A DNA stretch of 64,000 nucleotides, taken from NCBI GenBank assembly GCA_024672275.1, contig GCA_024672275.1_4536.1, one strand, 5' to 3'. Position 1 is the stretch's first letter. Each line of letters begins with the position of its first letter. The notes under the pieces were generated by a model. That model saw only the letters and a list, made by a program, of their open reading frames with translations. It ran no database searches and had not been told where the DNA came from. The DNA comes from a phage. Shown here piece after piece: positions 29,606-46,024 of the stretch. The translations under genes were made by a program, and so were the position numbers.

Positions 29606-29628
29606 AGAAAGGGGCCGAAGCCCCTTGA
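29606..29628 (-). terminator. UUCG-tetraloop hairpin terminator (family copy 1)
   Basis: AAGGGGC-TTCG-GCCCCTT on - strand followed by UUUCUUAUU and the next RBS; identical hairpin at about 41715 and 46005. Confidence 0.6.
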
Positions 29629-29633
29629 GTGGT

Positions 29634-30449
29634 TTATTTGTTTAAGTGGTCTTCGACCATTTTAATGAAACCTTCATTGCTGAAGGCTGTTGCAGCTTTT
29701 TCTCGGTAAACAAAAACTCCACGATCTTCATAGAGAAGTGTTTCTTCGTAATTAACTCCAGGGTTAACTACAACCATTTTTGTACCCATACTAAGTGCAG
29801 GAAATAATTCCCAATTAAAATTGATAACTTGGTTTGAACATCCTACTACTACAACCAAATCTTGCATGGTCAAAGTATCGAACAAGTGAGCCATATCTGC
29901 ATACAAAGGTGCAGCCTCACCAAAAAATACAACATTAGGCTTCACCCAGTTATAATCATCTATGTTTATACTATTGTAACCAATATCTACCAGTGTTTTG
30001 TAATCTCCAGGATGCATACGGTAAACTACTTCAGGAAGATATCCGTGTACGTGAATAACAGAATCTCTGTCTACACCTGCTCGCTCTAGTAGATCATCAA
30101 CGTTTGTTGTCAAGTTTACTATTTGGTTAGGATATTCCTTAAACCACTTTGCTATTTGAATATGTGCAGCATTAGGTTGTACATCTTTAAGCTCAACACG
30201 TCTTTTGTTATAAAATTCGTGTGTTTTGGCATACAAATCCATACCGTTCTCGTCTACACCACCGACCACTGGAAGATCTGGAGATGTTCTAACACGATAA
30301 CCTGCCTGGAAAGCTCCAATATCGCAGACCTCTTCTAAATCATATTCTTCCCATAAGGCACGACCACTATCGGTGTCTGTTCGGAATGTTCTAATCCCAC
30401 TATCTGCACTTAAACCTGCACCGCTTACAAAAATCACTCGTCTTGGCAT
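29634..30449 (-). CDS. Sir2-family NAD-dependent deacylase/ADP-ribosyltransferase-like protein (271 aa)
   Basis: Sirtuin motifs GAGLSADSGIRTFR, TTNVDDL, HVHG, VFFGE, LVVVGCS; no Cys4 zinc ribbon; RBS GAGGAGG. Confidence 0.6.
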   Translation of the reverse strand: MPRRVIFVSGAGLSADSGIRTFRTDTDSGRALWEEYDLEEVCDIGAFQAGYRVRTSPDLPVVGGVDENGMDLYAKTHEFYNKRRVELKDVQPNAAHIQIAKWFKEYPNQIVNLTTNVDDLLERAGVDRDSVIHVHGYLPEVVYRMHPGDYKTLVDIGYNSINIDDYNWVKPNVVFFGEAAPLYADMAHLFDTLTMQDLVVVVGCSNQVINFNWELFPALSMGTKMVVVNPGVNYEETLLYEDRGVFVYREKAATAFSNEGFIKMVEDHLNK

Positions 30450-30925
30450 TCTTCCTCCTCATAATCATCATAATCTTCGTCATCCAAATCGTACACTTCG
30501 TCTTGAGAATAACTCACTTCAAAGTAAATATCAAACTCCGCAAACAAACGTAGAATGTTGGACATGCTATAATAATTATCGTAGGCAGATTCAGCTTCAT
30601 AGTAAACATAAAGCAAATGGTTAGCCTTATCATCTTCCAAATATTTCCCGTCTGCATACGCATAGTCTGCATATGCTTTACCTGCATCTTCCACAAGAGA
30701 ACGATCAAGCAGAGTAGGAAATGGTTTCTCTTTTTCTTTTAGTTTGCTCACCAACCAGTGTGCAATATTATGCCAATCTGCATCCTCTCCGCTGAAGCAG
30801 CTTGCGACTTCGCCAAACTTGGCATCTCCTAAGTCCCCGCTGATAGTGATCATGGTTGAACTATTGTAACCACAAGTTTCGCAATTTGAACAACTGTTGT
30901 GCACATGAATTTCTACTTGAAACAT
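30434..30925 (-). CDS. hypothetical protein with N-terminal Cys cluster and acidic C-terminus (163 aa)
   Basis: Internal ATG 30925 with RBS GGGAGG; CSNCETCG motif. Confidence 0.5.
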   Translation of the reverse strand: MFQVEIHVHNSCSNCETCGYNSSTMITISGDLGDAKFGEVASCFSGEDADWHNIAHWLVSKLKEKEKPFPTLLDRSLVEDAGKAYADYAYADGKYLEDDKANHLLYVYYEAESAYDNYYSMSNILRLFAEFDIYFEVSYSQDEVYDLDDEDYDDYEEEECQDE

Positions 30926-30942
30926 ATTTCCTCCCATAAAAG

Positions 30943-30970
30943 AAAAGCCCCCTGAAACAGGAGGCTTTGT
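30943..30970 (-). terminator. putative rho-independent terminator
   Basis: - strand hairpin AGCCUCCUG..CAGGGGGCU followed by UUUCUUUU. Confidence 0.45.
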
Positions 30971-30983
30971 TCAGATGCTGGCA

Positions 30984-31637
30984 CTATACCAGACTTTGTA
31001 GGTATTTGTCAAGGGCTTCTTGATCGCCTTGACAAACATAGCAACGGAAGTCTTGAGCCGAAGGTTGTTTATTTTCATCCCAGTCCCAATAAACATTACC
31101 CTTATAACGTGAACCAGGAAACTCAAAAGAGGCTGTATGTGTAATGTATCCTGGGCCACCAGTGAAATCACAGAATGAGAATTGGGGGTATGCCGCCTTT
31201 ACTGCCTCAATAAACCAAGCTTTACGATCTAAGGCTTCATTGATGCTATATGCATGTCTCTCCATTTCTTCCCAAGTTTTCCAGACACTTCTCTCATCAG
31301 GAGAAAAGACAAGCCATTCTGGAAGGTAGAGAGTGTCATAGTAATCATCATATTCGATCTCGGAGGCGCACGAAGCTGACTCCTCCAGTTTTGAGTAATC
31401 AAAAGCAGAATATACCCACCAACCATCTTCCAGTAAGGCTTTGATAGGGACGAAGCCTTTATCAGCATATTGATCGAAGTGTTTGACACGGTGGCTTGTG
31501 CAGTCTTCAAACTCACATTCTAAACGATATGCACCTTTTCGACGAGCCTCAAGACCGTGTGTACTGAAAATAACAACACTTCCTTCACCATCATTACGAT
31601 CTACTTGATAAGCAACTACTGGTTTTGAATTTGACAT
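30984..31637 (-). CDS. hypothetical protein (217 aa)
   Basis: RBS AAGGAG + ATG at 31637; ORF track. Confidence 0.6.
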   Translation of the reverse strand: MSNSKPVVAYQVDRNDGEGSVVIFSTHGLEARRKGAYRLECEFEDCTSHRVKHFDQYADKGFVPIKALLEDGWWVYSAFDYSKLEESASCASEIEYDDYYDTLYLPEWLVFSPDERSVWKTWEEMERHAYSINEALDRKAWFIEAVKAAYPQFSFCDFTGGPGYITHTASFEFPGSRYKGNVYWDWDENKQPSAQDFRCYVCQGDQEALDKYLQSLV

Positions 31638-32320
31638 TATTTCTCCTTATCTAGAAGATTGTTAGACAAAAACACGGCACGAGCAAAACCACGTGCGGTT
31701 AGGGATCTAAGTTGTTTTGTTTTTGCACTAGCTCCACCTAAGCTTTTCCAACCCCAGAAGCAGCCTATATGATCTACTGGTTTCTTCACTGGTTGAACAA
31801 AACCATTGCCGTGCCAAATACAAGTTTTCTTTGTATACCCATCACGGGTAGGCATTTTAGGATGAAAGCTTCCTTCCTCTTCAAACAAATACCCACCATA
31901 CTCATAAGGATCAAAGTAAAAATCGGGTTTACGCCATAAGGTTGAAAGTTTACCTACTGGGTTTTCAATCATCCAAGGAACATTATATTTGTTACCCAAA
32001 GCTTCCACTACACGAATATTAGCTAAAGCTTCATCTAATTCCTCTGTGCTACGTTCGTGTTTGCTACCACTACCTGCTAACATAGTGCAAGGTGGAAATC
32101 CAAAAATAATATCGGGTTTAGGTATCCCATGATCTTCAGGGTTGAATGTAGAATCTATCCAGGCATTCACATAGGTTATGTTTGGGTGCTCCATCCTAAC
32201 CTCGTATTTACCGTGATCCCCTTCATCAGCGTTTACACAAAAACACTTGTGACCTGCTTCGGCATAACGTAACACCATGATCCCAGATCCGTCAAACATA
32301 GACAAAACTGTTTTACTCAT
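31637..32320 (-). CDS. C5-cytosine methyltransferase-like small protein (227 aa)
   Basis: Motif I-like FDGSG, motif IV-like GFPPCT, motif VI-like ENPVG; no obvious target-recognition domain; internal ATG 32320 with RBS GGAGGGG. Confidence 0.4.
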   Translation of the reverse strand: MSKTVLSMFDGSGIMVLRYAEAGHKCFCVNADEGDHGKYEVRMEHPNITYVNAWIDSTFNPEDHGIPKPDIIFGFPPCTMLAGSGSKHERSTEELDEALANIRVVEALGNKYNVPWMIENPVGKLSTLWRKPDFYFDPYEYGGYLFEEEGSFHPKMPTRDGYTKKTCIWHGNGFVQPVKKPVDHIGCFWGWKSLGGASAKTKQLRSLTARGFARAVFLSNNLLDKEK

Positions 32321-32708
32321 TACCCCTCCATTCAAGACAAGCCATAACTTTACGCCAATCACTTTCTGTAAGAAAAATCTCGTTTGCTTTCTTCCACAAA
32401 TCTAAATCGTGAAGGGTTGGAATACGATATGTTAGTTCACAGAATCTATGCTCTTCTTCTGTAATATAACCAAAATGCAGAGCCACATCGTGAAACCAAC
32501 ACCAACCATGCATCTCTCGAACAACATGGTCATGTTGAGACATTGTTTTATGCCGTAAACCTAACCAACAAGGAACAGATACTTTAGTAGTCTTTAATCT
32601 GTGATCAACAGTATTAGAGTATTCAATAATAGCTGTCAGTTTCAATCGTGCTTTTTCTAAATCCTCGTGCGTCACTTTGAAATAACTTTCTGAAAGATAT
32701 CCACACAT
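32313..32708 (-). CDS. hypothetical protein (131 aa)
   Basis: Internal ATG 32708 with RBS AAGGAGG. Confidence 0.5.
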   Translation of the reverse strand: MCGYLSESYFKVTHEDLEKARLKLTAIIEYSNTVDHRLKTTKVSVPCWLGLRHKTMSQHDHVVREMHGWCWFHDVALHFGYITEEEHRFCELTYRIPTLHDLDLWKKANEIFLTESDWRKVMACLEWRGNE

Positions 32709-32709
32709 A

Positions 32710-33651
32710 TTAATAACCTCCTTCAAAAGGCTTTACTACATGTTGATTAGCTTTAAAACGTTCAACATAATCGTTTTCGCCCATGTTTTCATATAGCTTA
32801 GTAACAACATAAAAGTTTTCCCAAGCATATTCCCTAAACCAACCACTAGTGATGGATGTGCAGACTTTAGATAAAGCCATTATAAAACTTTGCTTAGGGG
32901 TTGGACCTCCGATCTCTCCACCGAAAGGAATTTGTGAACGTTCCAAAGCCAAAACACACGCTTCTTCATAAACACCTAACAGGCGCACATGTTTTGGTTG
33001 AGCAAAAAACTTTTCTTTGCTGGTCATAACTTCACTTCCATCTTTCATATAAGATTTATATGCCGGAGCATCCATTACCGCGATTGCTTCATGGATAGAA
33101 TCATGATCATAAACATACGGAACCTCATCACCTTTAAAAAAGTCTTTACTTTTTACGTTTAAGTTCGGATGAGAGTAAGTGTATGTTTCTTTCTCACGCA
33201 ACTCATAAATACTCTTAAGATTTTCTGGGATCTTTGCGCCCAGTGACCGCATGAAATGAATATCTTTCATAGTTTTAAAGAAGTGAGGACTATCCTTTTT
33301 AAAACGATGACTCATTTTAAGAAGGTAGAGCACATCTAAAGGAGCAACAACATGTCCAGCGTAAGTTCGACGAACATCATCAGAATCTTCACAATAACTA
33401 ATCAAAGCTTCTGTGCTATCTCCTTGAGAAGCAATATCGTATTCCAAATGTGCACCAGCTATCATTTTGACATGGCCTTTGTTTCCTTTACGTTCTACAA
33501 GTTCAACAAACTCATCTTGAGAGAACATTTTTGATAATTCTTCCCACTCTTGTTCTGTACACAGGTAATCTAAATCTACACAAGGGCGATACAAGTCTTT
33601 TCCCATGTCCATAGCATGAATTTGCAATGCACGGCTACCAATTAACACCAT
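32710..33651 (-). CDS. hypothetical protein (313 aa), weak nucleotidyltransferase-like N-terminus
   Basis: RBS AGAGGAG + ATG; N-terminal GS...(19)...DLD pattern reminiscent of Pol-beta-type NTases (weak). Confidence 0.55.
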   Translation of the reverse strand: MVLIGSRALQIHAMDMGKDLYRPCVDLDYLCTEQEWEELSKMFSQDEFVELVERKGNKGHVKMIAGAHLEYDIASQGDSTEALISYCEDSDDVRRTYAGHVVAPLDVLYLLKMSHRFKKDSPHFFKTMKDIHFMRSLGAKIPENLKSIYELREKETYTYSHPNLNVKSKDFFKGDEVPYVYDHDSIHEAIAVMDAPAYKSYMKDGSEVMTSKEKFFAQPKHVRLLGVYEEACVLALERSQIPFGGEIGGPTPKQSFIMALSKVCTSITSGWFREYAWENFYVVTKLYENMGENDYVERFKANQHVVKPFEGGY

Positions 33652-33681
33652 AATATTTCTCCTCTATTGGTTGATAGGTTA

Positions 33682-33710
33682 AGTTTATCAAGCTTCCAGA
33701 TTCCTGTCAA
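33682..33710 (-). promoter_or_regulatory. sigma70-type promoter (- strand)
   Basis: On - strand TTGACA, N17, TAAACT immediately after terminator hairpin and upstream of ATG 33651. Confidence 0.5.
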
Positions 33711-33711
33711 T

Positions 33712-33737
33712 AAAAAACCCGCCGAAGCGGGTTATTA
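33712..33737 (-). terminator. rho-independent terminator (UUCG tetraloop)
   Basis: - strand AACCCGC-UUCG-GCGGGUU followed by UUUUUAUU. Confidence 0.65.
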
Positions 33738-33741
33738 TTTA

Positions 33742-34014
33742 CTAACACATTGAGGAAGAAGAGATCCAAACACCTCTTGTGGTTAAACCATTTTCATCCA
33801 ACTCTACACCATAATCTTCACAAATGAAATCAATATAGTGATCTGCGGCTGGCGTTCCTGTAGGGTAATAAGTTTCTCCGTTACCGTAGTCACCTATCCA
33901 AGCTTGTTCCTGAAACTGTTCACAAAGTTCTTCAATCTCCTTACGAAACTTTCTTTGTGCTTGTTCCATCTCTTTAACTTTCTTTTTTATCAGCAGTTCG
34001 CCTTCAGACTCCAC
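33742..34014 (-). CDS. small acidic protein, C-terminal W-x-SSS-x-C family (90 aa)
   Basis: RBS AAGGAGAG + GTG start; C-terminus GVWISSSSMC. Confidence 0.5.
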   Translation of the reverse strand: MESEGELLIKKKVKEMEQAQRKFRKEIEELCEQFQEQAWIGDYGNGETYYPTGTPAADHYIDFICEDYGVELDENGLTTRGVWISSSSMC

Positions 34015-34023
34015 AATCTCTCC

Positions 34024-34242
34024 TTAACAGCTACTACTGTGCCAAACGCCTTGAGAATTAACGACGAAACCATCATCACCTTCACCATAACAAGAAGAGG
34101 ATTGCCAATCTTCAAAACAGATTGCGTCATTTTCTAAACTAAGACCAAAACCAGCATCTTCAGCTTCTTTTGTAAGTTCGTCCACTAAAGCCATAATAGC
34201 TTGGGCTTTTTCAGTTAATTCTTCAACATTACGATCACTCAT
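34024..34242 (-). CDS. small acidic protein, C-terminal W-x-SSS-C family (72 aa)
   Basis: Internal ATG 34242 with RBS AGAGGAGAAA; C-terminus GVWHSSSC. Confidence 0.5.
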   Translation of the reverse strand: MSDRNVEELTEKAQAIMALVDELTKEAEDAGFGLSLENDAICFEDWQSSSCYGEGDDGFVVNSQGVWHSSSC

Positions 34243-34517
34243 TAGTATTTCTCCTCTGGTTGGAAAACTGAACGACAAGCCCACATACTAGCTTCTTTTA
34301 AATGTTTAATAGCACAACGGATTTGATCAATACGTTCGTATGCAAAATCTAATTCTTTCTCTGTGCCGTCAAAAGACCCATGATATGCTTCACAATACTC
34401 TTCCTCTAAAGCTTTGAAGATTAAACCTAAACGCTCTTCTGCATCTTTAATAGCGTTAACCTTGCCAATCTTATCGTCAGTATGCGCCTTATAACCTTTG
34501 ATATCTTCGATTCCCAC
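34242..34517 (-). CDS. hypothetical acidic protein (91 aa)
   Basis: GTG 34517 with RBS TAGGAGG preferred over track ATG 34556. Confidence 0.45.
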   Translation of the reverse strand: MGIEDIKGYKAHTDDKIGKVNAIKDAEERLGLIFKALEEEYCEAYHGSFDGTEKELDFAYERIDQIRCAIKHLKEASMWACRSVFQPEEKY

Positions 34518-34528
34518 TTTACCTCCTA

Positions 34529-34726
34529 TTAACAACTTAAAGAAGATGGATGCCAATTTGTTCCAGTATTCTCATTTTCATCTTCTGGATCATAATAACC
34601 ACCCATCCCATATTCAGGGGAGAAACGGAAACCTTTACCAGTCTCATCTGCTAACTGCTCTGCTTCCGCTAAAGCCTCATAAGCTGCTTTTACGGCTTCT
34701 TCTACTGTTTTAAACTTGGTCGTCAT
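34529..34726 (-). CDS. small acidic protein, C-terminal W-x-SS-x-SC family (65 aa)
   Basis: RBS AGGAGAGGAGAAA + ATG; C-terminus NWHPSSLSC. Confidence 0.5.
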   Translation of the reverse strand: MTTKFKTVEEAVKAAYEALAEAEQLADETGKGFRFSPEYGMGGYYDPEDENENTGTNWHPSSLSC

Positions 34727-35000
34727 AAAATTTCTCCTCTCCTAAAGACATGTTGACATGAAATGCACGATATGTAAATTCGTTGTCCGTTGTGTTTGAA
34801 TAAAACTCAAATTGAACAACACCATCTTGAGAAGACAGATACATGCCAATTTGAACTGTTCCTTCTGGTACCAGGTAAGCATACTCTGGACGTAGTGTTA
34901 CATTGTAAAAATAAAGTTCCCCAACACCCATTTCATCCCAAGCTTCCCAAGCGGTAACGAAGTTACTTTCAAAACTTGTTACTGATCTGAACTCTGCCAT
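34710..35000 (-). CDS. hypothetical protein (96 aa)
   Basis: RBS GAGGAGG + ATG; ORF track. Confidence 0.55.
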   Translation of the reverse strand: MAEFRSVTSFESNFVTAWEAWDEMGVGELYFYNVTLRPEYAYLVPEGTVQIGMYLSSQDGVVQFEFYSNTTDNEFTYRAFHVNMSLGEEKFYDDQV

Positions 35001-35491
35001 AAAACCTCCTCAATCTTGTAGTTTGACTCCATCTCCAACACATTTCCACGAACGTCTCTCCGAAGAAAGGCATAAGCTTTATTAGGTATTGTAGACTCAT
35101 ATTTAACCATATCTGGCACAGCAAAAGATACTACTACTCCTGCTGGGCTTCTGTCAAGAGCCTTATTAATATTTCTAAGGATATCGTTAGCCAAGATTTC
35201 TGCCAATTCTCCAAGAACAGTTTCGGTTATATCTTTATATCCCATTAAGTATTTGTTGATATCTTTCATCTCTGTATTGTTCAGAGTATAGTCCAAAGGA
35301 TAGAAATTCAAAGCGGAGTCACTTTTATGTGTCCACATGAAATGCACCCGATCAGAGCAGAATCGTAACCCTCTATGAAGAATATCTTCTACAACAGGGA
35401 GAATTTCTTTTGTCACATCATTAACCATGTTGTAATCTAAGATTTCTGCCAAGTTTGTTCTTTGTTCACCACGTTTACGTTTAGGAATCAC
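34979..35491 (-). CDS. hypothetical protein (170 aa)
   Basis: GTG start, weak RBS; ORF track. Confidence 0.5.
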   Translation of the reverse strand: MIPKRKRGEQRTNLAEILDYNMVNDVTKEILPVVEDILHRGLRFCSDRVHFMWTHKSDSALNFYPLDYTLNNTEMKDINKYLMGYKDITETVLGELAEILANDILRNINKALDRSPAGVVVSFAVPDMVKYESTIPNKAYAFLRRDVRGNVLEMESNYKIEEVLWQSSDQ

Positions 35492-36062
35492 TTGTTATTG
35501 CCCTCATTACCAAAGGTCGTAGAAAATCGTAAATCTCTTGTTTTGTTTTCCCACGAATGTTTAAACAAGGAACATTATTGGCTTTAGCTATCTTCCAAGC
35601 CGTAGCTGTTCCACCTTTTGCATCTCCATGTTTATCAGTATTAGCACAAGCCAACAAGAAACAGGATGGAGCAGGATTTTCCAAATCTCTACCTAACACT
35701 TGATGCACATTACGTTGGTGCAATTTTCTAGCACCCTGCTTAAGCTTTTCATAGGCTGGGTGAACATCTTTGATCCATTGCACAGAGATAGCATAGTTCA
35801 TTGTATCTGGTTTTGCAAGAACAATAACATCCCCTGGAATCTGATTACCTTTGAAATTTTCCCAAGGAACATAAATCTCCTTGTTAGTAGGATTTTCAGA
35901 CTCTTGGACACCTGTTTCAAAAGCAGAATCACTACCCTCTGCCTTCCCAGACCTTAATTTAAACCCAAGGTTTGAAAGCCATTTCCCTATGCCTACCATC
36001 AAAGCCCACTCTTCTTCGGATATATCTCTACTTCCAACTCCCGTATAGAACAGTTCTGCCAT
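35481..36062 (-). CDS. Rossmann-fold DprA/SLOG-like nucleotide-binding protein (193 aa)
   Basis: Internal ATG 36062 with RBS GAGGTG; GVGSRD ... SGKAEGSDSA pattern resembles DprA/SLOG motifs (weak). Confidence 0.35.
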   Translation of the reverse strand: MAELFYTGVGSRDISEEEWALMVGIGKWLSNLGFKLRSGKAEGSDSAFETGVQESENPTNKEIYVPWENFKGNQIPGDVIVLAKPDTMNYAISVQWIKDVHPAYEKLKQGARKLHQRNVHQVLGRDLENPAPSCFLLACANTDKHGDAKGGTATAWKIAKANNVPCLNIRGKTKQEIYDFLRPLVMRAITSDS

Positions 36063-36069
36063 AATCACC

Positions 36070-36378
36070 TCAACAAGTAATTTCAAAAGGTGTATAGGGT
36101 TCCGTATTTCTCATGATCCAAGGACTGCTAGGATTGCTCGGATCATAAGGACCAAAAGGTTTTATGGTAGGTTGTGTTTCTTTCTTCTGAATCTCTTCAA
36201 AAATACGACGAAGTTCAGAATATTCTTGATCCACCATAAGATTCGGTGCATCTGATTCTACAGCTTGCAGGTTATCTTCCTTAAGAACAATCTCACGAAC
36301 AAGATTAACATCTTCTGTTTCTAAGATAACTTCTTTACGGATATTGCCTACACTTTGAATAATTGTAACCTTATACAT
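36070..36378 (-). CDS. hypothetical protein (102 aa)
   Basis: RBS GAGGAGG + ATG; ORF track. Confidence 0.55.
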   Translation of the reverse strand: MYKVTIIQSVGNIRKEVILETEDVNLVREIVLKEDNLQAVESDAPNLMVDQEYSELRRIFEEIQKKETQPTIKPFGPYDPSNPSSPWIMRNTEPYTPFEITC

Positions 36379-38239: not shown

Positions 38240-38284
38240 AATCCCTCCTTAAAATACTCCCTCCGAAAAGGGAGTATAAGTATA

Positions 38285-38724: not shown

Positions 38725-38736
38725 AGTTCACACTCC

Positions 38737-39246: not shown

Positions 39247-39664
39247 CTAAAATCTCCTCTTTTGTAATATTATCCAACTCTTTAAAGGATGAAATCTCGT
39301 TTAATAATCCTATTTGATCAGCTTCTAGAGGATAAGTGTTTTTATCTGTTTTTCTAGACAGAATATCTTCAACAAACTTATCAATAGCCAAAGAAGAATC
39401 ATAAAATTTTAAAAGTTGGTAATCCATAGGAGATATTTTGTCATCTCTTAGAAATATTTCTAACATGTTTTCAGGAGTGTCATGGTTTAGTTTATGTTCA
39501 CCAAAAATATTAACTTCATAAACATCTTTGCCAAACCAACGTTTCTTCTTTTCAACAGTATAGGTTTTTGCCACCAGACCATCTAAACAGTTTCTTGCCC
39601 TCTTACATGTTTGACGGTAAGAGTGGATAGCGCCTTCAACAAACTTAGCAGGAACTTGTAACAT
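39230..39664 (-). CDS. hypothetical protein (144 aa)
   Basis: RBS ATAGGAGA + ATG; ORF track. Confidence 0.55.
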   Translation of the reverse strand: MLQVPAKFVEGAIHSYRQTCKRARNCLDGLVAKTYTVEKKKRWFGKDVYEVNIFGEHKLNHDTPENMLEIFLRDDKISPMDYQLLKFYDSSLAIDKFVEDILSRKTDKNTYPLEADQIGLLNEISSFKELDNITKEEILDGIRL

Positions 39665-39685
39665 TATTAATCTCCTATGTTTAAG

Positions 39686-39706
39686 AAATGCCCCCGAAGG
39701 GGCAGT
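39686..39706 (-). terminator. rho-independent terminator
   Basis: - strand UGCCCC-UUCG-GGGGCA followed by UUUCUUAAA. Confidence 0.6.
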
Positions 39707-39709
39707 TTG

Positions 39710-40402
39710 TTAAATAGCGGTTCCTTCGAAATCCGCCACATTTACGAGATTAATATTTTCAGATTTAGAAGTCAAGTTGTTTTCTGCAACAGATTTTTCT
39801 TCAGTATCCGCCTCGTTACCTGCCACGTTACGAGGTTCTTCTTCACCGTAGGGATTACCGAATTTCAAAAGATTGATCAATTCTTCTTTGGAGAAGTTTT
39901 CTAAATCATCATCTGTTAATTCAATAATCTCGTCTTGTTCTTCAATAAATGTTTCACCACCAGAAAAAGCATCTCGCTTTTTAGCTACTTCCATAGCCTG
40001 TTCTGGTGTTGCCCCTGCATCAAGAGCAGCTAAAGCAAAATCTGACCCACTCCCTACTGCATAATATTCTTCATCAATCGGATATGCACGTGTTGGGTTG
40101 TTACCTTCGTGCAGGAAAATACGTCCGTCTGGATGAACAACAAGTGCAATAAACTCTTCATCTTCTTTATCTGGATCAGAGTGAATCATCAAACCAGGGA
40201 CAGCATCACGTGCTGCTTCGCACTGTAGATTTTGTTCAAACCATTGAAAGAAAGAAAGCACGGAGGTCAGACGACCAGCACCACCTACAAGGTAATCTCC
40301 AATTTTTCGGACCTTTTTGAAATTAATAGAATCTACACGTCCACCAAAAGTTACCTTACCGTCACTCAAAATCTTATTTTTGGTTGCAATAATTGTCGTC
40401 AC
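39710..40402 (-). CDS. HslV/proteasome beta-like Ntn-hydrolase protein (230 aa)
   Basis: GTG start giving N-terminus (M)TTIIATKN with Thr after initiator, followed by GG.......KKVRK...GGAG pattern like HslV; RBS GGAGGAAGAA. Confidence 0.45.
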   Translation of the reverse strand: MTTIIATKNKILSDGKVTFGGRVDSINFKKVRKIGDYLVGGAGRLTSVLSFFQWFEQNLQCEAARDAVPGLMIHSDPDKEDEEFIALVVHPDGRIFLHEGNNPTRAYPIDEEYYAVGSGSDFALAALDAGATPEQAMEVAKKRDAFSGGETFIEEQDEIIELTDDDLENFSKEELINLLKFGNPYGEEEPRNVAGNEADTEEKSVAENNLTSKSENINLVNVADFEGTAI

Positions 40403-40905
40403 TATTCTTCCTCCTCTGTTAATGTTTTAAGAACCGCTTTCCCGCCATTCACGTATTTGCAGATGTATTCTATCGCACGTAGCGTCTCTTTGTCAACAAA
40501 AATTTGATCAGACGTTGCGAGCGGGTTATTAAGAAGATCACTGCAATCACGAACAAGCAGTGCTTTCTTATTAAACAAATTACTTAAGAACAGTAACTTC
40601 GCCTCTTCTTCTGTTATGTGCAGAAGGCTAGGATCGGAGCCAGCTATTCCTATTATACAATCAAACAAGCTTTCTTTACTATCAGAAAGTTCTTGAAAAT
40701 GGTTTAAAAGCCAATCTTCTCCTAGACACCAACATTTAAACATTTCCAGTTTATCTCGGAGGGTCATATTCTCTAAAGTAAGAGCAATCTCTTTTTCAAT
40801 ATGGTTTACACAAATTTGACGAAATTCGTTAGGTTTTACGAGTCCCGTTTGATAGCACTCATCTATACCGCTTCTTCCGATAGCTATTGTTGCTACACCC
40901 ATCAA
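40402..40905 (-). CDS. hypothetical protein (167 aa)
   Basis: RBS AAGGAGG + ATG; ORF track. Confidence 0.55.
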   Translation of the reverse strand: MMGVATIAIGRSGIDECYQTGLVKPNEFRQICVNHIEKEIALTLENMTLRDKLEMFKCWCLGEDWLLNHFQELSDSKESLFDCIIGIAGSDPSLLHITEEEAKLLFLSNLFNKKALLVRDCSDLLNNPLATSDQIFVDKETLRAIEYICKYVNGGKAVLKTLTEEEE

Positions 40906-40937
40906 TCCTCCTTATAAATGGCTTCCCTGCCATGTTA

Positions 40938-41696
40938 TTAAATAAACACTTCAGTAATCAGTTTAGACAAACGTCCACGTTTATTATCGTCCGTTGTCAG
41001 TTCAACGTATCCAATAAAATCTACAATTGGCTCACGAACACCTTCTTCATTTTCTGGATATAAAAGTTCCAAAATTTGATGCAGACCATTGCTACGTTTT
41101 TTAATTGCATATGTCTGGCGAACATCGCCTAATACAATAACATGCGTATTAATACCTGCACGTTCAATAAGAAGTTTAAGTGTTTCTGTTGACATAAGTT
41201 GTGCTTCGTCAATAATGACGATTGTATTATCCAGGGTAGCCCCTAACAAATAGTTAGGAATATTCAATTCGATCTTACCTGATCCAATATCGTTTTCCAA
41301 TTTGTTGGCTGTCATGAATTGCTGGAAAATACGTTTTGTAGATTCATAGTGTGCTGCTAGTTTATCTGTTTTATCCCCCGACAAGAAACCAATCTGATCA
41401 TCTCCGACTTCAGTAGGGTTCTTGATAAAAAGTAGTTTACGGAAGTCTCCTGAACGAAGCATCTGCAAAGCTTTCCATAAAGCAACAGAGGTTTTACCAG
41501 TCCCTGCCGGAGCATTTACAACAGTCAGATCATTCCAAATCATGCTTTGAACAATCTTATTTTGGTCCCCTTCAGGCATAAATTCATCTAAACGGTAATC
41601 GTCATTACCTACCGCTTTTGCTGCATAACGGCTTTCAATCTTTGCTGAATTAGCCAGTTTCTGCCGTTGTGTTTTAGCTGCGGTTTTATTTCCCAT
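40938..41696 (-). CDS. phoH: PhoH-like ATPase (252 aa)
   Basis: Walker A APAGTGKTSVAL, Walker B IIDEAQ, PhoH-like C-terminus; internal ATG 41696 with RBS AAAAGGAG just after hairpin. Confidence 0.8.
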   Translation of the reverse strand: MGNKTAAKTQRQKLANSAKIESRYAAKAVGNDDYRLDEFMPEGDQNKIVQSMIWNDLTVVNAPAGTGKTSVALWKALQMLRSGDFRKLLFIKNPTEVGDDQIGFLSGDKTDKLAAHYESTKRIFQQFMTANKLENDIGSGKIELNIPNYLLGATLDNTIVIIDEAQLMSTETLKLLIERAGINTHVIVLGDVRQTYAIKKRSNGLHQILELLYPENEEGVREPIVDFIGYVELTTDDNKRGRLSKLITEVFI

Positions 41697-41711
41697 AGTA
41701 GCACTCCTTTT

Positions 41712-41735
41712 AGAAGGGGCCGAAGCCCCTTTATT
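41712..41735 (-). promoter_or_regulatory. UUCG-tetraloop hairpin (family copy 2), terminator/processing site
   Basis: Identical AAGGGGC-TTCG-GCCCCTT between lysozyme stop (41734) and phoH RBS; weak U-tract, so may be attenuator or stability element. Confidence 0.5.
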
Positions 41736-42234
41736 AGTTGTAAGCATCTAAAGTTCCAGAAGTCAGAACTTTAATTACTCGTTCAGCACGGTTTGGCGTC
41801 TGGCTATACCATCGGCTTTTACGCATGTTTTTACCTGCTTGAGTATAATATGCATTGCTGATTAAAGTCAAGCTATTTTGAAACCCTTCAGCACCTTTTA
41901 ACCCCAACTGGAAAACCATGTTGATTATTCCCAATTTACGAGTATCACTAACCTTATCATAGATTGGTGATAAGATAGTACTGTTTTTTATGTCTCTCTT
42001 CACTTTTGCAACATCATCAGCAAAGATTTGACGGGCTTCTTTTTCTGTGATAACTCCATTAGTCTTACGACCAAGAAGATTATCTAAGATTTGAATAGCC
42101 TTTGCTTTATCTTTTATTTTAGTCAGAAGGTGTCCTATGCCGACTGTCCAATAACCAAGATGGTCTTGATAAACAGTAAGCTTCAGTCCTTCATCGACTC
42201 GTAGCATATCAAACTCATCTACTACTTTAGCCAT
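41734..42234 (-). CDS. T4-type lysozyme (GH24 endolysin), 166 aa
   Basis: Near-colinear with T4 gene e lysozyme: catalytic region MLR.DEGL.L..Y.D..GYWTIGIGHLLTK, C-terminal SRWY.QTPNRA..VI. Confidence 0.9.
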   Translation of the reverse strand: MAKVVDEFDMLRVDEGLKLTVYQDHLGYWTVGIGHLLTKIKDKAKAIQILDNLLGRKTNGVITEKEARQIFADDVAKVKRDIKNSTILSPIYDKVSDTRKLGIINMVFQLGLKGAEGFQNSLTLISNAYYTQAGKNMRKSRWYSQTPNRAERVIKVLTSGTLDAYN

Positions 42235-42241
42235 TTACTTC

Positions 42242-42391
42242 CTATTCGTCGTCTCCTACTCCGTGATCCAACTCGTTAAACAACAGATGTTCTGGAGAAG
42301 TTTCACGTTTTGGTTTCGTTTTCTTTATGTTGGACTTCAGCTCATTTGCCAAAGCACGAGAAAAGATCTTACGTTTCTGTTTACTTTTCAT
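42242..42391 (-). CDS. small basic protein (49 aa)
   Basis: ATG 42391 with RBS GGAG; K/R-rich; below ORF-track cutoff. Confidence 0.35.
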   Translation of the reverse strand: MKSKQKRKIFSRALANELKSNIKKTKPKRETSPEHLLFNELDHGVGDDE

Positions 42392-42396
42392 AATTG

Positions 42397-42657
42397 TTAC
42401 TCCGCAATTTGAGCCATGAGATCACGCAGTTCGGTAAAACCGCCTACGTATGTTACCTCCCCGTTCACTTCAGACAGAATTTGTGGAAATGTGCGTGGAG
42501 GAACTCCGGTAAGATCAACAACTGTTTTAGTCATTGATTCTAAATCATAGTCTTGATCAAGACTTAAATATTCAAACTGTTTATTGCGCATGGTTAATAG
42601 TTGTTTTGACATTTCGCAAAATTGACAGTTAGGTTTACCAAAAATTACAAATTCCAT
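42397..42657 (-). CDS. glutaredoxin-like redoxin (NrdH/Grx-type), 86 aa
   Basis: Active-site CQFC in thioredoxin-fold context FGKPNCQFCE; location beside nrdAB. Confidence 0.7.
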   Translation of the reverse strand: MEFVIFGKPNCQFCEMSKQLLTMRNKQFEYLSLDQDYDLESMTKTVVDLTGVPPRTFPQILSEVNGEVTYVGGFTELRDLMAQIAE

Positions 42658-43499
42658 TACCTCTCCTTATTAAGTAATACTGCTAAAGACTGTTCAATAC
42701 CTTTATTTAAATCTGATTTTGTAAGATAGTGACTGGTTACTAATTGTGACTTCACCGGACGTGCTGCTGGAGCATTATAGGTTGAAGCTGATACCGCCGA
42801 TATCTTAACAGGTTCTGGCATCTGTGTCAAGATCTTTTCCGCAAACTCCGCCCAAGAAATAAAATGGCTTCCTGCAAAATGGTAAGTCTTAACAGACCTT
42901 GACCAACCTGTTTTTAATACTTCAAAAATAGCTTCTGCTAAATCTGGAGCATATGTTGGACAAGAGAACTGATCAGCAACAATAATAAAATCACGTTGTC
43001 CATCGTTATAGCGAGACAACATCGTTTTTAGAAAGTTATTTCCAAATTCACTATATACCGAGGCTGTTCGAATAATATATGCATTTGGGTTAACTCCTCG
43101 CACCATTTTTTCACCAAGTTCTTTCGTATACCCATAATTGTTTATTGGGTTAGGTGTAGTATCTTCAAAAATAGGATGAGAATAATTAAAAATATAGTCT
43201 GTAGAAATATGCACAAAATCAATTTTAAGTTTGCTGCACACTGCCGCAATATTCGCAGGTCCATAAGCATTAACAGCCAAAGCAGTAGCAAAATCATGTT
43301 CTGCTTTATCTACAGCCGTATAAGCGGCGCAATTAATAACACCATCTACATAATCTTCAATAATAGCGTTTCGCACAGCTTCAAAATTTGTAATATCTAC
43401 ACGTTCTTTAGGATAAATTAAAGATACATTTGAAGGAGCCACTTTACGTAAAGCTTGTCCCAGTTGTCCATTACCACCCAATACCAGATATGTTAGCAT
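42657..43499 (-). CDS. rmlD: dTDP-4-dehydrorhamnose reductase RmlD (280 aa)
   Basis: N-terminal Rossmann LVLGGNGQLG, YTAVDKAE, STDY..Y.K...E catalytic region; overlaps rmlC stop. Confidence 0.85.
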   Translation of the reverse strand: MLTYLVLGGNGQLGQALRKVAPSNVSLIYPKERVDITNFEAVRNAIIEDYVDGVINCAAYTAVDKAEHDFATALAVNAYGPANIAAVCSKLKIDFVHISTDYIFNYSHPIFEDTTPNPINNYGYTKELGEKMVRGVNPNAYIIRTASVYSEFGNNFLKTMLSRYNDGQRDFIIVADQFSCPTYAPDLAEAIFEVLKTGWSRSVKTYHFAGSHFISWAEFAEKILTQMPEPVKISAVSASTYNAPAARPVKSQLVTSHYLTKSDLNKGIEQSLAVLLNKER

Positions 43500-44059
43500 A
43501 CACCCTCACTACGCAACTGTTGAAAAGATTTAGCCATTGCATCTTTTGTTGATAAGATAGGTTTAAAACCTTCGTCAAAAATCATATCGAAGCCCCAATC
43601 GATCCCTATGTCAGGATCATCCCAACGTAAACTTTGTTCGCTAGAAGGGTCGTATGGAGTTGTGCATTTGTATTCAAAGATAGCGTCCATACTCAAAACT
43701 ATAAAACCATGTGCCAAACCAGGGGGAAGCCAAAACTGCGTATGGTGTCGTGCACGAAGAACAACACCGTCCCAAGCACCGTAAGTTGGACTATCTTTAC
43801 GTAAATCTACAGCGAAATCCAATACTTCTCCACTTACACAACGAACAAGCTTACCTTGCGGGTTATTTGTTTGAAAGTGCATTCCTCGCAAAACACCGAA
43901 GTTTGATTTAGACATATTGTCTTGAACGAAAGTTTGTTTACCAATGATATCTTCGTATTTTTGTTCATTGTATGTTTCTAAAAAGAAACCACGATCATCT
44001 TTATAAACGTCTGGTTTGATAATTACCGCACCTTCAATTTTTGTTTTTTCTACTTTCAT
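43493..44059 (-). CDS. rmlC: dTDP-4-dehydrorhamnose 3,5-epimerase RmlC (188 aa)
   Basis: Cupin signature DDRGFFLETYN, VQDN.SKS..GVLRG.HFQ, GKLVRCV.GEV.D.AVD.RK.SPT.G, DP.IGIDW. Confidence 0.9.
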   Translation of the reverse strand: MKVEKTKIEGAVIIKPDVYKDDRGFFLETYNEQKYEDIIGKQTFVQDNMSKSNFGVLRGMHFQTNNPQGKLVRCVSGEVLDFAVDLRKDSPTYGAWDGVVLRARHHTQFWLPPGLAHGFIVLSMDAIFEYKCTTPYDPSSEQSLRWDDPDIGIDWGFDMIFDEGFKPILSTKDAMAKSFQQLRSEGVC

Positions 44060-44068
44060 TTTCTCTCC

Positions 44069-44395
44069 TTACCAGACATGTTGAGAAATAATAGTTTCCG
44101 TTTTAATGTTATATTTTTCAAGTAGCTCTACATAGGCTTCTTTTGCATTCTCATTTACTTGCTCAAGATCTACAGCTACGCTTCCTTCTCCGCCTTCTAA
44201 ATAAATACCATATATGCAATAAGACTCATCAGCATCGTAGAAAGGAGAGATGCGACTTAAGTCAAGACCTTCTTGTAAGAACCAGTTAAAATCTCCATCA
44301 AATTCTTCTTCAATTCTAGGATCTTCTCCTACAACCTCTTCCCACTTATTAAAAGGTGCACCCTGTAACATACGCCATTCGATATCAATACCCAT
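44069..44395 (-). CDS. hypothetical acidic protein (108 aa)
   Basis: RBS AGGAGGAG + ATG; ORF track. Confidence 0.55.
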   Translation of the reverse strand: MGIDIEWRMLQGAPFNKWEEVVGEDPRIEEEFDGDFNWFLQEGLDLSRISPFYDADESYCIYGIYLEGGEGSVAVDLEQVNENAKEAYVELLEKYNIKTETIISQHVW

Positions 44396-44549
44396 TTTTC
44401 ATCTCCTCCTCTTCTTGAGCAGCTTTAATAATTGCTTCATAAATATCGTAAGCAATGCCTCCACAACATCTAGCTTCGAAAGCTATTGCTTCTGCAATAT
44501 GATCTGTTAATTCTCGTGGAATTCGGACATACTCTTTTTCACTCTCCAT
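44385..44549 (-). CDS. hypothetical small protein (54 aa)
   Basis: RBS GGAGGTAGAAG + ATG 44549; overlaps both neighbours; below ORF-track cutoff. Confidence 0.45.
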   Translation of the reverse strand: MESEKEYVRIPRELTDHIAEAIAFEARCCGGIAYDIYEAIIKAAQEEEEMKNGY

Positions 44550-44691
44550 CTTCTACCTCCAACCCTTCTTTTTCAAAGACTACTACTCGTCCTTCACCAT
44601 GACAATTCAGGCAAGGAAATGTTACCATAATTTCCACTTCCATCTGTCCAGTCCCACCACACACAGGACAAAAAATAAGTTTTTCAGCCAT
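44539..44691 (-). CDS. zinc-ribbon small protein (50 aa)
   Basis: RBS AAGGAGGAATA + ATG 44691 (TAATG overlap); CPVCGG ... CLNCHG. Confidence 0.45.
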   Translation of the reverse strand: MAEKLIFCPVCGGTGQMEVEIMVTFPCLNCHGEGRVVVFEKEGLEVEDGE

Positions 44692-44900
44692 TATTCCTCC
44701 TTAATTATTTCAAACTTGGCAACACCATTTACAATAATATGACCACAAGACATAACTCCTAGCCAAGGATCGCCGTTTTTCTTCAGGCGTTTACCGAATA
44801 CATCACAAAAACCATTCTTCATTTCGGAGGCTTCATAAGAAGCCCCTTTGTCAAAAACGTCTTTGAATGTGTCGATTATACCAACACATCTCAAAATCAT
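44691..44900 (-). CDS. hypothetical protein (69 aa)
   Basis: ATG overlapping nrdB stop (TAATG); ORF track. Confidence 0.5.
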   Translation of the reverse strand: MILRCVGIIDTFKDVFDKGASYEASEMKNGFCDVFGKRLKKNGDPWLGVMSCGHIIVNGVAKFEIIKEE

Positions 44901-45985
44901 TAGAAGTCAAGCTCCTCATCATCAGAGAGATCTTTGTTAGCTGAATTCAATTTGTAATTAGTTAACTGAATCTCTTGGGCTGCTGACTGAATCAAATCAG
45001 GATTCAACCATTTTTCCATCCAAGCTAAAGGACTATGTTTAGGTGCTTTAAACTTAGCTTTCATTTTCAATCGACGATAAATAGGAGCAGCATTGAAATA
45101 AACCCACTGTTTAGACAATTCAGCGTTAAGACCTACAATAAAACGACCTTCACTAAACAGGTAGTCACACCACTGTTCCTCTTGTTCAACAACAGTGTCG
45201 AGGATCAAAGTCAACTCTTCAATATTGTCTTCGTAAATTTTACGCCAAATTGGGTCATGCAGCAATGCATCAATTACAGCATAATCCATCTTAACATGCA
45301 AGATTTCATCTAGCATAATTTTCTGGATCAGTTTACAAGCCCCAACAAACAGTTGTTGTTCTGCCATAGCAAAAGTAGCAGAGAAGGAAGATATAAACTG
45401 AATACCTTCTAATCCAATCAGGGCTACCATCCCTTTAAGAATCAGCAGTCGAAGTTCATCGTTAGCTTCAATCAATCCTAGAGCATACTTATGACCAGCT
45501 TCTTCCAACTGACCCATGATATCAGCAATGATACCCATACGATTGAAAATTTTATCATTAATCATAATCTGATTGATGACTTCAATTGGATCTGGAGTAC
45601 ATTGACGGATTATTTCAGAATACGTTAACGCATGGAGAACTTCCATTTCACTCTGCTTCATCATCATAGCACAGGCTTCATTGTTACTCAAGAATGGAGA
45701 GAACAAAGTGATGATTGATTTTGCAAGAGAATCATTTTCCCATTGGAACGATAAGTTTTTAATCATAACATCATAGTTGTTTTTAGAACAAGCTACGAAA
45801 TCTTTACGTGTCTGATCCAGATTAACTTCGTTTTCATCCCAATCTTGTGCTTTTTGAAGTTTGTAGAGTTTGTGCATTTCTGGATAAGTTACGTTAACAG
45901 AATCAAAGATCCCTAATTGTTCCCCTAAAAATACTGGATATTTTCCTGTTTTGTAAACTTCGTTATGTAAATTAATTGCTGCCAT
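44900..45985 (-). CDS. nrdB: ribonucleotide reductase class Ia small subunit NrdB (361 aa)
   Basis: Colinear with E. coli NrdB: N-terminal PVFLGE...Y....KLYKLQKAQDW..NEV, di-iron ligand region, C-terminal acidic tail DDEELDF. Confidence 0.9.
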   Translation of the reverse strand: MAAINLHNEVYKTGKYPVFLGEQLGIFDSVNVTYPEMHKLYKLQKAQDWDENEVNLDQTRKDFVACSKNNYDVMIKNLSFQWENDSLAKSIITLFSPFLSNNEACAMMMKQSEMEVLHALTYSEIIRQCTPDPIEVINQIMINDKIFNRMGIIADIMGQLEEAGHKYALGLIEANDELRLLILKGMVALIGLEGIQFISSFSATFAMAEQQLFVGACKLIQKIMLDEILHVKMDYAVIDALLHDPIWRKIYEDNIEELTLILDTVVEQEEQWCDYLFSEGRFIVGLNAELSKQWVYFNAAPIYRRLKMKAKFKAPKHSPLAWMEKWLNPDLIQSAAQEIQLTNYKLNSANKDLSDDEELDF

Positions 45986-46001
45986 TTAAATCCTCCTCAA
46001 T

Positions 46002-46024
46002 AAAAGGGGCCGAAGCCCCTTTAC
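46002..46024 (-). terminator. UUCG-tetraloop hairpin terminator (family copy 3)
   Basis: Identical AAGGGGC-TTCG-GCCCCTT between nrdA stop and nrdB RBS; - strand U-tract UUUUAUU. Confidence 0.6.

Follow-up and report, generated by a model that had tools for sequence, protein, structure and literature searches.

The window analysed here, the whole stretch of 64,000 nucleotides, belongs to a phAPEC8-like E. coli myophage of the genus Phapecoctavirus, subfamily Stephanstirmvirinae, and one and the same hairpin recurs in its spacers. In fact the exact 18-mer AAGGGGCTTCGGCCCCTT (AAGGGGC-TTCG-GCCCCTT) has three matches, at 29609-29626, 41714-41731 and 46004-46021, all on the minus strand, which is the mRNA-sense strand there, and all between genes. 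A sequence-only reading had placed it three times between a stop codon and the next ribosome-binding site, and so it is; no additional site with up to two mismatches exists in the window. The copies and the gene remnant beside the third are:

29609..29626, minus strand: copy 1, AAGGGGC-UUCG-GCCCCUU, between a Sir2-like gene (29634-30449) and a 90-aa gene (29318-29590)
41714..41731, minus strand: copy 2, the 18-mer hairpin, between the endolysin/lysozyme gene (41734-42234) and phoH (ATG at 41696)
46003..46022, minus strand: copy 3, the 18-mer hairpin with an eighth A-U pair, between nrdA (stop at 46052-46054) and nrdB (ATG at 45985)
46023..46051, minus strand: remnant of an HNH homing-endonuclease gene, in the spacer from the nrdA stop to copy 3

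Placed 2-30 nt past a stop codon and 17-18 nt ahead of the next ATG, they are RNA hairpins of the sense strand at the ends of genes. The distances to the preceding stop codon and to the following ATG are 7 nt (Sir2) and 18 nt (90-aa gene) for copy 1, 2 nt (endolysin, a tandem TAATAA) and 17 nt (phoH) for copy 2, and 30 nt (nrdA) and 18 nt (nrdB) for copy 3. In each, a 7-8 bp stem that includes five G-C pairs carries a C(UUCG)G loop of 4 nt, which falls within the dimensions of intrinsic-terminator hairpins (GC-rich stem of ~5-14 bp, loop of 3-8 nt), and each stands where such terminators stand, on the transcribed strand and 3' of coding sequence. The minimum free energy structure is the hairpin itself in all three 56-nt contexts (-13.9 kcal/mol for copy 1), with modest dinucleotide-shuffle z values of -2.3, -1.6 and -0.75. 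The copies share the hairpin only, as a search for longer repeats found that identity ends at 18 nt and that the flanking sequence is unrelated. Scans of the whole window gave no Rfam family at the gathering score and no tRNA or tmRNA. That a functionless GC-rich palindrome merely recurred by chance is a practically negligible explanation: its small size is all that speaks for it, and against it stand the intergenic placement, the orientation, the conservation across genera and the dinucleotide shuffles of the window, which yield 0.01 matches on average and reach three or more in 0/100 cases.

The tails following the hairpins were scored by the TransTermHP formula (PMC1852404), counted from the G-C core, with -2.5 as the candidate cut-off. 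Copy 1 is followed by UUUCUUAUU and then the ribosome-binding site AGGAG, and copy 3 by UUUUAUU and then GAGGAGG; their scores of -4.45 and -4.63 are both in the top 0.5% of sense-strand positions. The tail of copy 2 before phoH, UUCUAAAA, is weak and offers no more than UUCU, with a score of -3.29 that passes the cut-off and lies at the 7th percentile of the background. This agrees with the earlier description of two good U-tracts and a weak one before phoH, and the difference goes with the site: orthologous tails at the phoH site are weak (-3.3 to -3.6) in every lineage examined but Justusliebigvirus (-4.38), and those at the nrdA-nrdB site and downstream of Sir2 are U-rich and strong in all lineages examined. 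A stricter terminator scan of the sense strand, in which the tail starts beyond the stem's A-U pairs, for this reason flags only copy 1 among the three. The next ribosome-binding site comes at once, which keeps the tails short (4-9 nt), and the strongest tails, scoring -5.45, belong to hairpins with a promoter directly after them (33718 and 52152).

Besides the three copies, the window contains further hairpins with the same loop:

33712..33733, minus strand: AACCCGC-UUCG-GCGGGUU followed by U6, second family, strong predicted terminator, tail score -5.45
28969..28992, plus strand: AACCCGC-UUCG-GCGGGUU followed by U6, between two small genes, z = -3.98, tail score -5.26
39689..39704, minus strand: UGCCCC-UUCG-GGGGCA (DNA TGCCCC-TTCG-GGGGCA), tail UUUCUU, intergenic
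38254..38277, minus strand: AUACUCCCUU-UUCG-GAGGGAGUAU (DNA ATACTCCCTT-TTCG-GAGGGAGTAT), 14 nt before a start codon

The first two, whose core CCCGCTTCGGCGGG lies at 33718-33731 (-) and 28973-28986 (+) and is given 0 times by shuffles, had been described as related CCCGC-TTCG-GCGGG hairpins, and they are in fact identical across 22 nt, AACCCGCTTCGGCGGGTTTTTT. At the minus-strand copy the T-tract merges into a sigma70-like promoter, TTGACA-N17-TAAACT at 33710-33682, and its stem and loop also occur in Justusliebigvirus VEcB and in Klebsiella phage phi1_175008; the plus-strand copy is in the sense orientation for a plus-strand gene block. The other two, at 39689-39704 and 38254-38277, are absent from the sequence-only reading; for the one at 39689-39704, phi1_175008 has AATGCCC-TTCG-GGGCATT after hslV. 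The C(UUCG)G hairpins of the window (n=6) carry UUCG on the local coding strand in 6/6 cases and are intergenic in 6/6. According to passages of PMC8948821, the motif described by Tuerk in 1988 is (X)2-8 CUUCGG (Y)2-8 with X complementary to Y, and such hairpins are predominantly intergenic, are unusually stable to heat and stop reverse transcriptase; all six window hairpins have this motif and are intergenic.

The exact reuse of one hairpin had been taken to suggest a dedicated punctuation element, and in that form the idea is not supported. The same 18-mer turns up in unrelated viral contigs of IMG/VR (at least 120, with 103 distinct flanks and GC 21-65%) and in bacteria of many phyla (at least 120 contigs). 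Among the viral matches listed, at least five T are found in the next 8 nt in 70% in the UUCG sense vs 33% in the opposite sense, and a ribosome-binding site with a start codon follows within 30 nt in 34% vs 3% on the other side; among the bacterial matches listed, 76% have the T-tract. Judged from these contexts, the 18-mer is a terminator hairpin of generic design, reused by convergence, and not a phage-specific punctuation mark.

The same three junctions were then compared between the window and five other lineages of the subfamily, whose PhoH proteins are 70-100% identical. Flanking sequence diverges between lineages, and the GGGGC/GCCCC stem is intact in 31 of the 32 instances fitting the search pattern, the remaining one having a G-U wobble. 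The loops in these 32 instances are TTCG, TACG, GAAA, GTAA, GCAA and GGAA only, all among 12 of the 256 possible tetraloops, and across the junctions they are extra-stable tetraloops, bar one exception at one junction. For example in the five other lineages, the junction downstream of Sir2 has GAAA or TACG loops and the phoH junction has GAAA, GTAA or GCAA loops; at the nrdA junction most relatives have a TTCG, GAAA or GGAA loop or a variant GGGGG/CCCCC stem, the stem being variant or imperfect in two lineages. The stems are essentially invariant and show no compensatory changes, so covariation is unusable, and what supports the hairpins is their thermodynamics, their position and the narrow choice of loop classes. 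Moreover in the close relative DIJ07P1 (142.9 kb), 10/10 TTCG and 5/5 GNRA GC-rich hairpins are sense-oriented, 13 of these 15 lie outside all mechanical ORFs of 80 aa or more, and just these three have the GGGGC stem, the other stems being different, which again speaks against a dedicated element. As the stem is kept while the loop varies among stable tetraloops, the property under selection is apparently a very stable RNA hairpin and not UUCG itself.

Loop changes tend to be all-or-none. At the phoH site, the window and L125 differ in 4/4 loop positions vs 2/43 non-loop positions (Fisher p = 8e-5), and all switches of loop class towards UNCG fall within one clade. Inversion of the loop by template switching was considered and rejected, since the reverse complement of TTCG is CGAA, which is not one of the GNRA loops seen here. 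The invariant GGGGC stem might be recognised by a protein of the phage or the host, be it an antiterminator, a nuclease or a translational regulator, so that nrdB, phoH and the post-Sir2 gene would be coordinated and the copies kept alike by gene conversion. Such a regulon mark would suit a stem unchanged at three sites in six lineages though the flanks diverge, as well as a loop class flipping as a block and UNCG switches confined to one clade. It is nevertheless very unlikely, since purifying selection on a 5-bp G-C helix already predicts an invariant stem, hairpins with other stems (CCCGC, TGCCCC) are conserved equally, the identical 18-mer sits in hundreds of unrelated genomes, and no candidate binding protein was identified. 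Moreover at a fourth orthologous site the window carries the unrelated AGGGAGC-UUAUU-GCUCCCU in place of the GGGGC hairpin. A somewhat different proposal, to which we give small odds, is that the GGGGC-stem hairpins are a small ancient set evolving in concert, the 4-nt loop being copied as a cassette by short-patch gene conversion, and that the fixed stem might be read by a phage factor tuning read-through into nrdB, phoH and the post-Sir2 gene. Loop copying between copies with identical arms would explain both the all-or-none flips and the all-UUCG state of Phapecoctavirus.

The spacer at 46023..46051 keeps the ribosome-binding site of the HNH gene together with its start codon and its first seven codons. 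The gene is intact at the equivalent position in VEcB, where the ORF (locus 19461-20117) matches phrog_953, HNH endonuclease (E = 7e-57, PHROGs), and where the hairpin is positioned after the inserted gene and not directly after nrdA. The two sequences are near-identical up to ...GAACAG(G/A)TGAAGAAGGGTAAACGTAAAG and divergent beyond. At copy 1, the Sir2 gene is 97% identical to that of Justusliebigvirus and its downstream neighbour 46%. Hairpins at such mosaic junctions, the near-perfect palindrome and a 29-nt identical stretch in the unrelated phage 4MG would be in keeping with a DNA-level element (a palindrome bound by protein, or a signal for recombination or replication) or with a mobile miniature repeat. 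This is extremely unlikely, however, considering that the asymmetric loop is strictly sense-oriented, as in 10/10 TTCG hairpins across DIJ07P1, and that a restriction to RNA-stable tetraloops is meaningless in duplex DNA; the repeat is just 18 nt with unrelated flanks, and the flanking sequence, read by eye, has no terminal repeats or target duplications. In particular a mobile miniature repeat of the REP/MITE type was rejected, as identity ends at 18 nt and the sites are orthologous in all relatives, six lineages with the window, and hence not mobile.

From the sequence, position, orientation, conservation and tail quality of the hairpins we infer termination, read-through and stabilisation, and our main reading, held at a probability of about 0.7, is that the copies are leaky Rho-independent terminators or attenuators also capping 3' ends, in the class of the T4 intercistronic C(UUCG)G hairpins. 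The window is rich in host-type sigma70 promoters, and its transcription, at least early, would therefore fall to E. coli RNA polymerase, an enzyme that obeys intrinsic terminators. This polymerase would read the hairpins from the sense strand inside a long early/middle gene block of nucleotide metabolism and accessory functions; at hairpin and U-rich stretch part of the transcripts would stop, their 3' ends capped against 3' exonucleases, and the remaining ones would read through into the next gene. Since the hairpins lie inside operons, and the next ribosome-binding site starts 5-9 nt past the hairpin, which leaves no space for a promoter of its own, termination would have to be partial. The products of nrdA and nrdB are required in equal amounts, which makes an efficient terminator between them odd and is the reason for the word leaky. 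The strength appears graded by the tail, with the nrdA and Sir2 sites stronger and the phoH site weak, so that copy 2 may act mainly as an RNA-stability element. The identity of the copies would come partly from a tiny design space (a 5-bp G/C stem, C-G closing, a stable tetraloop and A/U flanks) and partly from ancestry, each site going back to a GGGGC-stem hairpin that the common ancestor of the subfamily already had, with the loop possibly copied between the three. The suggestion of termination, attenuation or 3'-end stabilisation is in line with all that was seen in the sequence. In the literature on Phapecoctavirus/phAPEC8 and relatives we found genome descriptions with terminator counts and no transcriptome or terminator mapping, and the detailed annotation of phi92 has at the phoH junction ribosome-binding-site and CDS features only and no terminator.

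Stabilisation or processing of mRNA with no termination at all is the most probable of the alternatives, though an unlikely one. RNase E would cut the AU-rich stretches beside the hairpin, which would shield the 3' end of the upstream fragment or the 5' end of the downstream one, and neighbouring cistrons would differ in half-life. This could account for the U-tract of copy 2 being weak in all lineages but one, for the constant 17-18 nt between hairpin and ATG, and for the downstream genes all lacking promoter space, so that read-through must be substantial; the 5' CUUCGG hairpin of T4 gene 32, which stabilises its mRNA (PMC8948821), is a precedent, and the phage itself places another hairpin family right behind early promoters, that is, as non-terminator RNA elements. 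However, U-rich tails in the top 0.5% are kept at two of the three sites in all lineages, and a pure block to exonucleases would need none; elsewhere too a T-tract follows the 18-mer in 70-76% of the matches listed. Stabilisation and termination are moreover not mutually exclusive.

Among known systems, the E. coli intrinsic terminators and leaky attenuators have the same GC-rich 7-8 bp hairpin, tetraloop, upstream A-tract and downstream U-tract after a stop codon, whereas here the tails are only 4-9 nt, one copy has UUCU only, and all are within operons. The malE-malF REP of E. coli and the puf stem-loop of Rhodobacter are intercistronic mRNA-stabilising structures. Like these and the T4 gene 32 leader, the present hairpins are stable and intercistronic and could set different half-lives, a likeness that fits the phoH copy best; unlike REP elements they are much smaller, and two of the three have terminator-grade U-tracts. 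Strong terminators combine a 7-bp stem, a tetraloop and a high-U tail (PMC9257418). The intercistronic C(UUCG)G hairpins of T4 and other phages, with roles in termination and mRNA stability according to passages of PMC8948821, share with ours the short G/C stem, the C-G-closed UUCG, the mostly intergenic and mRNA-sense placement, and the setting in a large lytic E. coli myophage. The differences are the lineage (Stephanstirmvirinae), the interchange of UUCG and GNRA at a fixed-stem site, and the fact that stability here means predicted energies. Hence the hairpins are real and conserved and not a new kind of element, the type being known in phages since 1988, and they open no new question. Mildly new are the invariant stem and the loop class that switches as a block, of which gene conversion between copies may be the cause. 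This frozen stem, with the loop hopping between UNCG and GNRA at fixed sites, is a natural experiment that argues for selection on fast, stable folding over a particular tetraloop. For annotating phAPEC8-like phages, which serve therapy-oriented work, the hairpins offer three (really seven or more) candidate transcript boundaries.

As a separate observation, repeated GC-rich promoter-proximal hairpin cassettes occur in the first 1-10 kb of the window just upstream of ribosome-binding sites, ~7 nt past a sigma70-like -10 box, with an AAUGGU/AUGG-type loop and no U-tract. They resemble the 18-mer hairpins in being GC-rich, repeated and near a ribosome-binding site, but would be 5'-end and not gene-end elements.

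From 29 to 47 kb the window shares 98-98.6% identity with complete genomes of phAPEC8-like E. coli myophages, which belong to the genus Phapecoctavirus in the subfamily Stephanstirmvirinae. The + strand carries the genes as far as about 29.25 kb, and the - strand carries those from about 29.3 kb onward. All three copies of the hairpin AAGGGGCTTCGGCCCCTT fall inside the - strand block of nucleotide-metabolism and accessory genes (nrdA, nrdB, dTDP-sugar enzymes, endolysin, phoH, hslV-like, methyltransferases and Sir2).

29609-29626, - strand: copy 1, 7 nt past the Sir2 stop and 18 nt ahead of the start of a 90-aa gene
41714-41731, - strand: copy 2, 2 nt past the endolysin stop and 17 nt ahead of the phoH start
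46004-46021, - strand: copy 3, 30 nt past the nrdA stop and 18 nt ahead of the nrdB start
28973 (+) and 33718 (-): CCCGCTTCGGCGGG, the two copies identical over 22 nt, T6 tail included
39689-39704: TGCCCC-TTCG-GGGGCA
38254-38277: 10-bp hairpin with TTCG loop
29291-29314, both strands: convergence hairpin, perfect 10-bp AAAGGCACCC-ACTT-GGGTGCCTTT, T-rich tails on each strand

The recurrence of the hairpin is real and non-random; no dinucleotide shuffle of the window contained three matches, and no further match with up to 2 mismatches was found in the window. The flanks of the copies are unrelated, so that the shared repeat is the hairpin alone. By the TransTermHP tail function (formula from PMC1852404), counted from the G-C core, the tail of copy 1 scores -4.45 (top 0.5% of sense-strand positions) and that of copy 3 -4.63 (top 0.3%), while that of copy 2 scores -3.29, at the 7th percentile. 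The sequence-only reading, which placed three exact copies between a stop codon and the next ribosome-binding site, with good tails at two and a weak one before phoH, is thus borne out, as is its CCCGC-TTCG-GCGGG pair; the hairpins at 39689-39704 and 38254-38277, which it did not list, came from a hairpin scan. The hexamer CTTCGG occurs 24 times in the window; six of these occurrences lie within strong hairpins, and in all six the UUCG sense is that of the local coding strand. The hairpin at 29291-29314 stands at the exact meeting point of the + and - strand gene blocks and looks like a bidirectional terminator.

The same junctions were compared in the Justusliebigvirus phage VEcB, Klebsiella phage phi1_175008 and about ten IMG/VR contigs found by their PhoH and Sir2 proteins, which together with the window's genus represent six lineages (PhoH identity 70-100%). 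The pattern GGGGC-N4-GC(C/T)CC returned 32 instances, across which the core stem is GGGGC/GCCCC save for one G-U wobble. Outside this pattern, the nrdA junction carries an imperfect TGGGC/GCCCC hairpin in VEcB, after its HNH gene, and in PD06-like contigs a variant hairpin whose stem is GGGGG/CCCCC and whose loop is longer. The loops found at each junction are as follows.

Before phoH: TTCG, GCAA, GTAA, GAAA
After Sir2: TTCG, TACG, GAAA
After nrdA: TTCG, GGAA, GAAA, and the PD06-like variant hairpin

All loops except the PD06-like variant belong to the UNCG or GNRA families, which make up 12 of the 256 tetranucleotides, and therefore the selected property seems to be an extra-stable RNA hairpin rather than UUCG itself. 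A role at the DNA level or as a mobile element is contradicted, since these loop classes are RNA-specific, the asymmetric loop is strictly in sense orientation, and the positions are orthologous and immobile. Inside one class the loops vary by single changes at the N position, and the switch between UNCG and GNRA is all-or-none; for example at the phoH junction, the window and a relative's contig (L125) differ at 4/4 loop positions against 2/43 others (Fisher p = 8e-5). Such a block-wise switch, together with the invariant stem, is compatible with a factor recognising a fixed stem or with concerted evolution of the copies by gene conversion; against both, different stems are equally conserved in the same genomes, and the hairpin sequence is ubiquitous.

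The close relative DIJ07P1 (142.9 kb) has 15 GC-rich hairpins, 10 with a TTCG loop and 5 with a GNRA loop. Every one of them is sense to its upstream genes, 13 fall outside mechanical ORFs, and the GGGGC stem is confined to the same three. The exact 18-mer occurs in at least 120 IMG/VR contigs, with 103 distinct upstream flanks and a GC content of 21-65% among the matches listed; in these, the 8 nt that follow on the UUCG-sense side hold 5 or more T in 70% versus 33% in the other direction, and a Shine-Dalgarno sequence with a start codon lies within 30 nt in 34% versus 3% on the opposite side. At least 120 bacterial contigs of many phyla (Yersinia, Citrobacter, Aeromonas, Pseudomonas and Bacteroidota among them) carry it too, and there the matches listed have a T-tract in 76% and a nearby start in 8%; by our own arithmetic, chance would give about 17 matches per 596 Gb. 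This spread, with T-tracts across viruses and bacteria, points to a generic terminator design with many independent origins, and compact phage genomes typically place such a hairpin right up against the following ribosome-binding site. The sequence-only interpretation was essentially right in kind, and overstated in proposing a dedicated UUCG element, as the loops vary and the 18-mer is generic. The three hairpins are a fresh instance of a long-known class, mildly new only in the frozen stem, the UNCG/GNRA loop hopping at fixed sites and a hint of loop copying between copies.

Near-consensus host-type sigma70 promoters are frequent in the window, which suggests that E. coli RNA polymerase transcribes at least the early genes, and this enzyme responds to hairpin and U-tract signals. 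The best-tailed hairpins, at 33718 and 52152, each have a promoter directly downstream and read as classical terminator-promoter junctions. After the three GGGGC copies the ribosome-binding site comes directly and the space is too short for a promoter, so the genes that follow would depend on read-through for their expression; among them is nrdB, the obligate partner of nrdA. On the most economical reading, every functional step of which we infer from sequence, the copies would act as leaky intrinsic terminators or attenuators, and a hairpin at the transcript 3' end would also serve as a cap against exonucleases. How strong a tail is depends on the site: the nrdA and Sir2 tails are strong in all lineages (-4.45 to -5.56), and the phoH tails are weak (-3.3 to -3.6) in every lineage but Justusliebigvirus (-4.38). 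The phoH copy may accordingly be shifted toward a pure stability element, and for copy 2 a stability-only role probably accounts for some of the picture. The leaky-terminator reading is consistent with mutational data in which a 7-bp stem, a tetraloop and a U-rich tail make strong terminators (PMC9257418). The behaviour proposed here is that described for intercistronic CUUCGG hairpins of T4 and other phages in PMC8948821 (citing Tuerk et al. 1988). The literature searched yielded no 3'-end map or transcriptome for the phAPEC8-like group.

A fourth junction, which follows a DNA-polymerase-like gene, carries a GGGGC-GAAA-GCCCC hairpin in VEcB and in the Klebsiella phage, and another element in the window.

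52095-52170, - strand: unrelated AGGGAGC-TTATT-GCTCCCT-T6 hairpin fused to a TTGACA-N17-TATACT promoter

With the extra small ORF that follows, it resembles a moron-like insertion (an extra gene with its own promoter and terminator), and this swap suggests that positional function may persist while the sequence is replaced.

Possible traces of gene exchange also lie around the hairpins. The 30-nt spacer from the nrdA stop to copy 3 (46023-46051, - strand) is the remnant of an HNH homing-endonuclease gene, keeping its ribosome-binding site, start codon and seven codons; the gene is intact between nrdA and nrdB in VEcB (L122 19461-20117; phrog_953, E = 7e-57), and the deletion junction lies inside the 5' arm of copy 3, a perfect AAAGGGGC in the window versus AAATGGGC in VEcB. 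In T4 the homing endonuclease gene mobE likewise sits between nrdA and nrdB; other relatives have a different 109-aa ORF downstream of the hairpin. The Sir2-like protein (29634-30449, - strand) shares 97% identity with its counterpart in Justusliebigvirus contigs (L133/L134), its neighbours being far more diverged (downstream 90-aa protein 46%, PhoH 76%), and the similarity ends at the extreme 3' end of the gene, just ahead of copy 1. The pattern has the look of a recent exchange whose junction lies at the hairpin. In Escherichia phage 4MG (NC_022968.1; Seunavirus, Vequintavirinae), positions 601-636 hold CAACTAATAAAGGGGCTTCGGCCCCTTCT followed by AAGGAG in an unrelated context, between a tail-fibre gene and a hypothetical gene, and share 29 identical nt with the endolysin-phoH junction (41704-41740), last sense codon and tandem stops included, which may be chance on a common hairpin or terminator-cassette transfer between co-infecting phages. 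A number of database records of about 146-151 kb that bear the name "Campylobacter phage" (e.g. MG065650.1 and MG065645.1) show 78-100% identity to this group across the phoH junction, and further ones have matches to rV5-like nrdB; mislabelling or contaminated samples are the probable cause.

A separate hairpin family of about 14 copies lies at 230-9300 (+).

277-296, 1521-1540, 2163-2183, 3266-3285, 6177-6196, 7912-7931 and 9245-9264, + strand: examples of this promoter-hairpin family

Each cassette has a sigma70-like promoter (TTGACA-N17-TAAGAT/TAATAT) and, after a gap of about 7 nt (tAtCACGTA), a hairpin without a U-tract, either GGGCGGCAATGGTGCCGCTC or one of its variants GGCGGGAAGTGGTTTCCCGCC and AGCGGGAATAGTTCCCGCT; about 10 nt further on come a purine-rich ribosome-binding site and the ATG of a small gene. 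As the hairpin is predicted at the extreme 5' end of early transcripts, it may serve to stabilise the mRNA from that end or to regulate it. At two further sites a strong sigma70-like promoter is followed, about 10-20 nt on and before the next gene, by a terminator-type hairpin and U-tract.

28923-29017, + strand: TTGACA-N17-GATAGT, then CCCGC-UUCG-GCGGG-U6, with the 9-mer TAGCAATAG on both sides of the hairpin
31012-30944, - strand: TTGACA-N18-TATAGT, then AAAGCCTCCTG-TTT-CAGGGGGCTTT

Such arrangements could yield very short RNAs or act as leader attenuators, or the promoter calls could be false.
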